A DNA stretch of 64,000 nucleotides from a virus. Taxonomy: Duplodnaviria; Caudoviricetes. Every line of letters starts with the position of its first letter. Position 1 is the stretch's first letter. The stretch spans positions 64,001 to 128,000 of the IMG/VR virus record IMGVR_UViG_3300028886_000055, one strand, 5' to 3'. Shown here one piece after another: positions 30,069-46,024 of the stretch. A program made the position numbers and the translations under genes. The notes beneath the pieces were generated by a model. That model made no database searches. It saw only the letters and a program-made list of their open reading frames with translations, and was not told the origin of the DNA.

Positions 30069-30078
30069 ATAAAATTAG

Positions 30079-30152
30079 TCGGGGATCTCGGACTCGAACC
30101 GAGACCTTGGGTTTTAGAGACCCTTGCGCTAACCTAATTACGCTAATCCCCA
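30079..30152 (-). tRNA. amber suppressor tRNA(CUA), probably Gln-charged
   Basis: TGGGGAT acceptor, loop CT-CTA-AA, TTCGAGT T-loop; weak U1 pair typical of tRNA-Gln. Confidence 0.92.
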
Positions 30153-44546: not shown

Positions 44547-44642
44547 ATTGAATATCTCATAATTTCATTTAATGACCTAAGCATGTCTTAAAACTGCTTA
44601 AATTGCTCGATTGGCGAAATTCTAGGTAAACGCAGTAGACTT

Positions 44643-45656
44643 AGAGGATATTTTTATTCTAAAGATTTTCATTAACTAAATTTAACAATTTTGACTTGGA
44701 AGACTCGAAATTTTTCTTTATATTTGTGTATATAAATAATACATAATATGAGTAAGGAAAAATATACAAACGAAGAATTTATTCAAGCCGTTGCTAAAAA
44801 TAAATCTTATGCAGGAGTAATGAAACAATTAGGTTTAAAACCTGCTGGAGGAAATTATGCAACTGTAAAGAAAAAGATCCAAGAGTTAAATTTAGATACA
44901 TCACATTTTACAGGTAAAGGTTGGAATACTGGTTTAAAGTTTAAACCAAAAGTCGCAAAGCCTTTGTCTGAAATAATGGTGGAAAATAGTAATTATCAGT
45001 CTTATAAACTTTCTCAAAGATTAATAAAAGAGGGTTTAAAAGAGCATAAATGTGAGAATTGTGGGAGAACTGAATGGGAAGGATTTCCTATTGCATTAGA
45101 ACTGCATCATATAAATGGTGTACATACTGATAATAGATTTGAAAACCTACAAATGTTATGCCCTAATTGTCACGCTATGACTGATAATTATAGAGGTAAA
45201 AATATCAAATTGAGTGCACAGAAAGAAATTTCTGATGTAGAACCTTGTAAATTCAAGGAAACCTTAACAGATAATGCTGATGGCAATCTTGAGCCAAGCC
45301 AAAATGTTATTTTGGAAGGTGCAGAGACTAGACACAAGGAACCTAAACCTAAAAAGAAAAAGATTTTAGAGCCAAAATATTGTGCGTATTGTGGTATTGA
45401 ACTAATAGGAAGTGCTAGAAAAAACAAATATTGTTCATCAGAATGTGCACATAAAGCTAATGGAAGTAAAAGACCTGACGTTTTTACATTGTTAAATGAT
45501 TTCAAAGAATTAAAATCGTTCGTACAAGTTGGTAAAAAATATGGTGTAACTGACAATTCTGTTAGAAAATGGTGTAAACTCTATGGAATTTTAGACAGGG
45601 TTAAGGAATAGTCCAGCCTACAAACTTAAAAAGGTAGTGAAAACTATAGTAGGAAG
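44643..45656 (+). mobile_element. group I intron carrying an HNH endonuclease
   Basis: AAATTCAAGGAAACC, GGCAATCTTGAGCCAA, GGTGCAGAGACT, ATAGTCC resemble the trnL(UAA) intron core; terminal G. Confidence 0.9.
44748..45611 (+). CDS. intron-encoded HNH endonuclease with C-terminal Zn-finger/HTH
   Basis: CENC...LELHHINGVHTDNRFENLQMLCPNCH; own TATATTTG promoter at about 44719. Confidence 0.9.
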   Translation: MSKEKYTNEEFIQAVAKNKSYAGVMKQLGLKPAGGNYATVKKKIQELNLDTSHFTGKGWNTGLKFKPKVAKPLSEIMVENSNYQSYKLSQRLIKEGLKEHKCENCGRTEWEGFPIALELHHINGVHTDNRFENLQMLCPNCHAMTDNYRGKNIKLSAQKEISDVEPCKFKETLTDNADGNLEPSQNVILEGAETRHKEPKPKKKKILEPKYCAYCGIELIGSARKNKYCSSECAHKANGSKRPDVFTLLNDFKELKSFVQVGKKYGVTDNSVRKWCKLYGILDRVKE

Positions 45657-46024
45657 AAAATCTACCGGTCTGAAAAGGCCTTGCTGGTTCGAGTCCAGTA
45701 TCGAGCACTAATTAAACAAAAAATATAACACTGAGGTGGACTTCAAACGCAAAACCTATTAAACTAGGCGTATGTGCGAAGTATTAGAGTTGGGAAGGAT
45801 CGCTACCTTGGTAAGTGTTGTATTTTATAATCCTTTTCAGCGTTTACGGTGTAACAGAGCGCTACGCTTGGTCTATAAGTACCTTGAACTTACAAAAACC
45901 GTTAACTGTCGTATTAGGTAGAGGAAGCCTAATATTCATAATTATTAGAGGTGGCTAATATAACCTTTTGCTCATATTGTTTGCTCAGTATCCACCTATA
46001 CTGAGCTTTTTAAAATTAAGGATT

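Follow-up and report, generated by a model that had tools for sequence, protein, structure and literature searches.

In mobile group I introns, the ribozyme and the nuclease gene are normally kept apart, with the open reading frame (ORF) confined to a loop. Extension of an ORF from a peripheral loop into core helices has been described as 'core creep'; the largest tabulated overlap between ORF and core is 81 nucleotides (nt), and each tabulated ORF lies in a single loop (PMC3073962). Here we report a locus at which this separation is lost. We analysed a window of 64,000 nt (positions 64,001 to 128,000 of IMG/VR record IMGVR_UViG_3300028886_000055, a Caudoviricetes virus record of 139.7 kb) in which a phage tRNA-Leu(UAA) gene probably harbours a mobile group I intron whose homing-endonuclease gene is threaded through the ribozyme.

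Among the closest described systems is the td intron of phage T4 with its nuclease I-TevI, which shares with the window a phage group I intron and a homing-endonuclease ORF overlapping ribozyme helices (PMC3073962, PMC3984707). Like the window protein, I-TevI is modular, with a catalytic domain, a long flexible linker, a zinc (Zn) finger and a helix-turn-helix (HTH); in addition, there are promoters inside the td intron, and translation has to be kept from disturbing splicing. However, I-TevI is a GIY-YIG enzyme whose ORF occupies one loop (P6), with its last 20 nt reaching into P6a/P7, whereas the window enzyme is of the HNH type and uses the loops of both P1 and P8. The td host gene also encodes a protein, whereas the window host gene is a tRNA. 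In some fungal mitochondrial group I introns, the ORF continues the upstream exon in frame and crosses core helices before reaching a loop-borne nuclease domain; what the core encodes there is a leader, either removed or functionless, whereas in the window the core-encoded part joins two conserved folded modules. In the tRNA-fMet intron of Synechocystis PCC 6803, a group I intron in the anticodon loop, the I-Ssp6803I ORF lies in P1 and overlaps P1/P2 by 61 nt (PMC3073962); unlike the window protein, I-Ssp6803I is a PD-(D/E)XK enzyme, and its ORF stays in a single loop and does not cross P3-P8. A homing nuclease that has been studied within a tRNA cluster, SegB of T4 (PMC2330249), is a GIY-YIG enzyme, unlike the window HNH protein.

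Overlap of an ORF with the core is already known; crossing of the whole core between two modules appears to be new and to be an extreme form of core creep. The window ORF runs from the 3' strand of P1 to the 5' strand of P8 and then through the 3' strand of P8, J8/7 and the 3' strand of P7, and thereby falls under core creep as described. It goes beyond the described cases in that a second folded module follows the core. In the papers searched we found no ORF that crosses the entire core and joins functional modules in two loops, and no nuclease-bearing tRNA-Leu introns in phages; the preprint of Williams (10.1101/2020.01.27.920355) covers bacterial genomes only. The threaded layout was also not found among GenBank phage records. 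Reviews place phage introns mainly in protein-coding genes, and in our data phage tRNA genes commonly contain group I introns, some with a nuclease gene and some without.

At this locus about 150 nt both fold as P2-P8 and encode a protein tether, a layout kept in roughly a hundred diverged lineages. It therefore offers a natural system for the limits of superimposed RNA-structure and coding constraints, in which the protein side yields by means of a disordered linker, and for how collisions between translation and splicing are avoided. The layout is of interest for the study of mobile introns and of overlapping RNA and protein codes.

A phage tRNA-Leu(UAA) gene split by a group I intron

Two tRNA halves at 44605-45707 enclose about 1 kb of sequence. 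Their acceptor strands (GCTCGAT/ATCGAGC) are complementary, and by sequence the anticodon stem GTAGA/TCTAC surrounds CTT and AAAA, with the intron in the gap between these. When the exons (44605-44642 and 45657-45707) were joined in a script, they formed a type II tRNA that ARAGORN called as tRNA-Leu(taa) at a 90% threshold, and the joined exons of six relatives gave tRNA-Leu(taa) at the default setting; ARAGORN run on the unspliced window did not detect the split tRNA. The site between U34 and A35 is common to the diverged tRNA-Leu(UAA) exons of six related loci (L001, L018, L019, L100, L104 and L105). The cyanobacterial and plastid trnL intron is likewise inserted between U34 and A35.

Searched as a sub-region with an E-value threshold, the insert matched Rfam RF00028 at 45243-45339 (model positions 50-157; 39.2 bits, E = 3.6e-8), and a search of the whole genome with RF00028 gave E = 8.9e-10. 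At the gathering threshold, Rfam reported tRNAs only across the whole window and left the intron undetected. The homologous intron of L019, which has no insert in P8, scored 63.3 bits across the full RF00028 model. A covariance model that we built from ten group I cores of this type (R1) scored the window core at 155 bits and gave 75 matches in other phage and metagenome loci (37-153 bits).

Covariation was assessed in 48 distinct cores, with partners slid by 1-3 columns and 500 shuffles as controls. Standard pairs filled 94.6% of cells, versus 33-46% with slid partners; changes on both sides were seen in 24 of the 29 pairs, and none of the 500 shuffles matched the observed covariation. By eye, P7 covaries between the window (GACUA/UAGUC), L018 (GACUU/AAGUC), L109 (GAGUA/UAUUC) and L101 (GACUG/CAGUC), as does P8 in the same comparison (AACC/GGUU, UACC/GGUA and CACC/GGUG). 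The U.G pair at the 5' splice site and the terminal G are also present in L001, L018, L019 and L100, and L001 has equivalents of P1 (CACUU/GAGUG) and of the P1 extension (AUAUUUUU/AAAAAUAU). Folding of a mini-precursor, in which both inserts were swapped for GAAA loops, regained the P1 extension, P2, P5, P6, P7, P8, P9 and the anticodon stem of the exons; P3 and P4 were absent from this fold, as expected from the P3/P7 pseudoknot. The window insert is confirmed as a genuine group I intron.

The core is compact: P3' is followed directly by P8, L2 and L9 are GAAA loops, and CCUAA-type motifs occur in P5 and P8. In this it may resemble the Azoarcus/Anabaena-type tRNA introns (IC3), which have a compact core, GAAA-capped P2/P9 and receptor-like CCUAA in P5/P8, and which lack P5abc and P7.1/7.2, as the window core does. 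The J3/4-P4 and J6/7-P7 sequences also look very similar to those of this type. Those introns are about 200-250 nt long, ORF-less and cellular, whereas the window intron is 1,014 nt long, resides in a phage and looks mobile.

A two-module nuclease ORF

The 287-codon ORF matched Pfam PF01844 (HNH) at amino acids (aa) 102-144 with 27.2 bits against a cut-off of 21.4, and PHROG 10822 (phage HNH endonuclease) with E = 8.4e-60, aa 2-277 aligning to profile positions 4-243 of 245. About 36 query residues are extra relative to this profile and are placed in the linker. Across 46 aligned sequences, the HNH-region residues C102, C105, H121, N133, N140, C141 and H142 are invariant, as are the Zn ligands C212, C215, C229 and C233; the C-terminal module has a mean column identity of 62%, with many HTH residues invariant or nearly so. 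AlphaFold, supplied with this alignment, predicted aa 1-151 and 202-287 with a predicted local distance difference test score (pLDDT) of about 90, and aa 152-201 with a pLDDT below 50 and without secondary structure.

Foldseek gave no match in the PDB below E = 0.001, and a profile search of PDB sequences gave no match. With VIA-align, generic HTH folds matched the three-helix end at a modest Z of 4.8-5.8 and HNH folds matched at Z 4.5-4.7. Structural kinship to I-HmuI or I-TevI is not claimed, the structure searches having given generic HTH and HNH matches only.

Free-standing PHROG 10822 nucleases, for example in Klebsiella phage Muenster, Agrobacterium phage Atu_ph07 and Enterococcus phages, belong to the same family and have the same domain order. 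They differ in lying outside introns, with a linker shorter by about 35-45 residues and no ribozyme inside it. The family members carried free-standing by cultured jumbo phages are 27-34% identical to the window protein over 85-98% of the query.

The ribozyme core doubles as the protein linker

The predicted linker (aa 152-201) corresponds to nt 45201-45350, from the 3' strand of P1 to the 5' strand of P8. In all, the ORF overlaps the core by about 156 nt on the 5' side (45199-45354) and by 23 nt on the 3' side (45589-45611). We compared the window with L001 (74% identical) by codon position. Differences at positions 1/2/3 were 0.18/0.11/0.38 in the N-terminal module and 0.15/0.09/0.35 in the C-terminal module; in the linker they were 0.14/0.10/0.14, without codon periodicity. 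Both modules thus evolve as proteins and the linker as RNA. Four tRNA-Leu(UAA) introns that have no ORF but an almost identical core (L100, L104, L105 and L107) give, in the same frame, ...LSAQ.E...VE..KF.ETLT.NADGN.EPS... before meeting a stop, often the TAG of GACUAG in P7. Since the same 'peptide' arises from introns that have no ORF, conservation of the linker is imposed by the RNA. These data show that the tether is under RNA constraint and the two modules under protein constraint.

Threaded loci analysed as DNA were four: the window, L001, L018/L271 and L109. In each of them the frame runs through the entire core without a stop, whereas it is open end to end in only about 4 of 31 related cores outside any threaded ORF. 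It is also kept between the window and L001, which differ by 9 nt in the length of P6. The open frame through the core is not due to chance. Past codon 144, the window ORF offers neither ATG nor GTG as an in-frame start, and L001 does not share the two in-frame TTG codons of the linker (155 and 189). The C-terminal module is conserved and selected and has no conserved start of its own, which implies that translation passes through the core.

A first-pass annotation, made from the sequence letters, had proposed much of this layout. The insert does sit at the trnL(UAA) position it gave, between U34 and A35 of exons that join into tRNA-Leu(taa), and its helix placement agrees with ours: GATATTTT (44647-44654) pairs with AAAATATC (45199-45206), and the guide GAGT (45212-45215) with ACTT (44639-44642). 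The covariance-model check that it suggested was run, and the core matched RF00028 and R1, with core elements inside the ORF. It had put a promoter and the HNH domain in the P1 loop, where we find a candidate TAnnTTTG motif before the ATG, conserved in relatives, and the HNH match (aa 102-144) within 44748-45200. The same frame does continue, as proposed, through P2-P7/P3' into a Zn-ribbon/HTH in the P8 loop (the 202-287 module of the 287-codon ORF), and ends at a TAG in the S element (45609-45611, within P7 3' UAGUC 45609-45613). The reading of the shared stretch as a protein linker agrees with the low pLDDT (<50) of aa 152-201. Core and linker do share nucleotides, but over about 156 + 23 nt, somewhat above the roughly 130 nt claimed. 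Coordinates are collected in Table 1.

Table 1. Features of the tRNA-Leu(UAA) gene, its intron and the threaded ORF, in window coordinates.
Feature	Position	Strand	Basis
5' exon of tRNA-Leu(UAA), ending at U34	44605-44642	+	sequence; joined exons typed by ARAGORN
Group I intron, 1,014 nt, with omega-G 45656 at its end	44643-45656	+	Rfam, covariance model R1, joined exons
P1 5' strand ACUU, U.G pair at 5' splice site	44639-44642	+	complementary to guide GAGU 45212-45215
P1 extension, 5' strand GAUAUUUU	44647-44654	+	complementary to 45199-45206; seen in mini-precursor fold
TATATTTG, Bacteroidota-type -7 promoter-like motif, 21 nt upstream of ATG	44719-44726	+	motif conserved in relatives
ORF, 287 codons; ATG 44748, TAG 45609-45611 inside P7 3'	44748-45611	+	ORF call, Pfam, PHROG
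N-terminal module, aa 1-151: helical N-domain and HNH nuclease, in P1 loop	44748-45200	+	pLDDT, Pfam, codon positions
P1 extension, 3' strand	45199-45206	+	complementarity
Stretch that is both ribozyme core and linker (P1 extension 3' strand to P8 5')	45199-45354	+	R1, Rfam, covariation, pLDDT
Guide GAGU	45212-45215	+	pairs with exon ACUU
P2, GAAA loop	45219-45234	+	sequence, fold
P3	45243-45248 with P3' 45334-45339	+	Rfam, R1
P4	45253-45258/45287-45292	+	Rfam, R1
P5	45262-45283	+	Rfam, R1, fold
P6	45293-45320	+	Rfam, R1, fold
P7	GACUA 45326-45330 with UAGUC 45609-45613	+	covariation by eye, fold
P8	5' 45340-45354; 3' UUUUAG 45589-45594 and GGUU 45599-45602	+	covariation by eye, fold
C-terminal module, aa 202-287: Zn-ribbon CxxC...CxxxC and three-helix HTH, mostly in P8 loop	45351-45608	+	pLDDT, invariant Cys, codon positions
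J8/7 AAGGAA, between P8 3' and P7 3'	within 45589-45613	+	sequence
P9; inner hairpin UAGU-GAAA-ACUA 45635-45646	CCUAC 45617-45621/GUAGG 45649-45653	+	sequence, fold
3' exon of tRNA-Leu(UAA), starting at A35	45657-45707	+	sequence; joined exons

Threaded and other states among relatives

The threaded form is widespread in uncultured phages. We found 1,012 homologues of the ORF protein; most of the 120 best clusters at 90% identity are 270-300 aa long, and direct inspection of their linkers showed the core-encoded motif between both modules in about 95 of these 120. The nearest protein relatives, from Logan/ENA, are 70-92% identical. At the DNA level, the threaded state is represented by the window, L001, L018 and L109; a pattern spanning P7-P3'-P8 gave 112 loci with a single threaded form among them, and a metagenome scan added L109 alone to the threaded set.

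Other arrangements occur beside it. Some relatives have the whole ORF, of one or two domains, downstream of P7/P3', and relatives with stops inside the core exist; the first-pass annotation had counted such stops, if homing is kept, as speaking against its proposal. The tail of L025 (DMVKRKSRPQT) equals the C-terminal end of threaded L018, the difference being exactly the L8 insert, in frame. Free-standing two-domain relatives with a short linker and no ribozyme, often among tRNA genes, include L002, L017, L020 and L024, and two database proteins (P0112 and P0100) also lack the core. L017 lies directly after an intact tRNA that by eye resembles tRNA-Leu. ORF-less, beside-tRNA, L1, downstream-of-core, threaded, C-less and possibly fossil-linker states thus stand side by side, giving a view of the rise and decay of composite mobile introns.

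Several further group I cores were noted in passing. In L100 (792-1755), an ORF-less tRNA-Leu(UAA) intron is accompanied by an HNH gene of the same family (37% identity) about 230 nt past the tRNA, which looks like a nuclease beside the intron and not inside it. L107:5501-7222 (-), a viral contig, has three group I cores in 1.7 kb with near-identical P4-P5, none with a long ORF and, by eye, at least two of them in tRNA genes. A related core at L099:10488-10634 (-) lies in an apparent tRNA-Lys(UUU) gene, so that the intron family is not limited to tRNA-Leu. At L097:7758-7901 (-), where the host gene is not a tRNA, a related core follows a 276-aa LAGLIDADG-type ORF that terminates at the TAA of CCUUAA in P5, so that here too an ORF ends inside a core.

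Proposed mechanism, translation and splicing

In our preferred reading, that of a mobile intron with a threaded nuclease gene, the ribozyme would self-splice to give a working tRNA-Leu(UAA), which would be useful to an AT-rich phage with heavy TTA usage. The nuclease would be expressed from its own promoter within the P1 loop and would bind, and cut or nick, the intron-less tRNA-Leu(UAA) of co-infecting relatives near the U34/A35 site, and repair would then copy the intron into the cut allele, that is, homing. This homing role is suggested by position, by family and by the conserved U34/A35 site in diverged tRNA-Leu exons. A flexible tether between catalytic and DNA-binding modules, as in I-TevI, would accommodate the ribozyme core. 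The C-terminal module would be made only when ribosomes translate across the core and unfold it, because it has no conserved start codon of its own; on the full pre-tRNA transcript such read-through would block splicing, and a promoter-derived mRNA, which lacks the 5' exon, would be translatable at no cost to tRNA maturation.

The candidate promoter block is kept in L001 (TAACTTTG), in free-standing L017 (TACCTTTG) and in L110, and its form TAnnTTTG corresponds to the Bacteroidota-type -7 consensus. A sigma-70 promoter scan was at chance (10 found versus 10.0 expected), and no terminator was found.

Competition between translation and splicing is plausible: a ribosome over 45199-45354 that stops on P7 3' would unfold the core, and one RNA could therefore not be translated and spliced at once. 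An internal-promoter mRNA without the 5' splice site may avoid this conflict. Taken further, there may be no real conflict at all, if the nuclease is translated only from such an mRNA or from excised intron RNA and the pre-tRNA stays untranslated; we put this at somewhat under an even chance. Threaded and free-standing relatives alike have TAnnTTTG 21 nt ahead of the ATG, and the mRNA it would give begins downstream of the 5' splice site and of the P1 5' strand. However, the ORF and its start are also on the pre-tRNA transcript, where we found nothing that sequesters the start, and the promoter is a candidate motif. Reviews of T4 td/I-TevI, in which 20 nt of the ORF form P6a/P7 (PMC3073962), report that core-overlapping ORFs must be expressed under tight control (PMC3984707, PMC3073962).

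It is also conceivable, though in our judgement rather unlikely, that the threading is a selected mutual lock that, in addition, lets each transcript serve either nuclease synthesis or tRNA maturation but not both. If so, deleting or frameshifting either partner would harm the other, slowing the usual decay of homing nuclease genes, and the phage would have a built-in switch between tRNA-Leu production and intron spread.

Alternative explanations and origin

Several observations weigh against the threaded mobile intron as we read it. The joined exons of the window score just under the default threshold of ARAGORN, and the RF00028 score is under gathering, because the 234-nt insert in the P8 loop splits the model. 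The alignment behind the covariation test had been fitted to the structure of the model, which favours that structure, though the margin is very large. The four threaded DNA loci are a small sample, and the promoter is assigned from its motif match. In 24 loci the HNH part lies in L1, the ORF ends in or before the core and the C-terminal module is absent, and four short protein clusters (P0115, P0117, P0119 and P0120), 76-78% identical to the window N-terminal module, stop at P3; with so many HNH-only relatives, the C-terminal module must be dispensable in some lineages. Moreover, TAG may be decoded late in infection, which would lengthen the ORF by six codons to the TAA at 45627-45629. A tRNA with anticodon CUA ('tRNA-Pyl' in ARAGORN) is encoded at window 30078-30152 (-) and is likely an amber suppressor.

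The low scores of exons and core speak for a dead relic, with the tRNA a pseudogene and the nuclease gene sitting in the remains, but we give this hardly any credence: every helix is intact, as are the U.G pair and omega-G, compensating changes keep the pairs across relatives, the exons of six relatives form a standard tRNA-Leu(UAA), and the low Rfam score follows from the P8 insert, L019 without it passing. We also consider it very improbable that the HNH part alone is the working nuclease and that the read-through of the core and the module in the P8 loop form a functionless core-creep extension. HNH-only ORFs ending in or ahead of the core are frequent among relatives and occur in diverged clades, and the short forms at 76-78% identity show how close to the window they come. 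However, the C-terminal module has a third-position excess like that of the N-terminal module, its four Cys are invariant and its HTH residues mostly so (62% mean column identity in the 46 sequences), it is predicted to fold confidently, and it is homologous to that of free-standing two-domain relatives; the frame, moreover, stays open despite P6 inserts of variable length, such as the 9 nt between the window and L001.

The first-pass annotation had seen in the ORF a fusion of two separate loop insertions, such that L1 received an HNH gene and L8, independently, a DNA-binding gene, with read-through of the core joining them later. Related introns do carry this HNH family at two places, within the P1 loop or entirely downstream of P7/P3', an intron with inserts of both kinds could result from recombination in the shared core, and core creep (PMC3073962) offers a route for extending an ORF across the core; the L025 tail, which matches the L018 end minus the P8 insert, fits in-frame gain and loss alike. 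This part of the earlier proposal nevertheless does not hold up well, and we regard such an origin as quite improbable. Free-standing relatives already have both domains, joined by a short linker, PHROG 10822 spans the whole protein, and trees of the N- and C-terminal domains agree. The nearest free-standing relatives are the same in both (L017/L108, L116/L120, L115/L119, L020/L111 and L024), and the two modules therefore share a history; both trees place the two-domain forms that sit entirely downstream of the core farther away. C-less forms mix with threaded ones in the N-domain tree, and they make up diverged clades (the L054/L055/L058/L067/L076/L151/L153 clade, together with L019, L021 and L022). 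The trees are unrooted and of modest support, which is weak on the branches that bear on the direction between threaded and free-standing forms. Fusion of two unrelated insertions is an unlikely origin; the linker of a complete gene may have taken in a ribozyme core, or free-standing forms may have lost the core. Three two-domain relatives (P0071, P0090 and P0062) have linkers like the first half of the core-encoded peptide, with the P6-P7 part absent. These linkers may be fossils of a lost ribozyme, hinting that such loss occurs.

Additional observations

In L017, an in-frame TGA (1827-1829) stands at a Trp (TEW...) that is conserved in all homologues, and the phage of L017 probably reads TGA as Trp. 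In a tRNA array, an HNH homologue is closely followed by a RAGATH-33 RNA at L003:3593-3721 (126.8 bits, above gathering). L027 encodes a phage tmRNA (589-961, 126 bits) and, about 400 nt further downstream, a tRNA-Leu(UAA) whose intron has an HNH-only ORF. Just upstream of the window, at G000:C1:59163-62104 (-), a stretch of 3 kb holds four further group I matches, one of which scores 84 bits.

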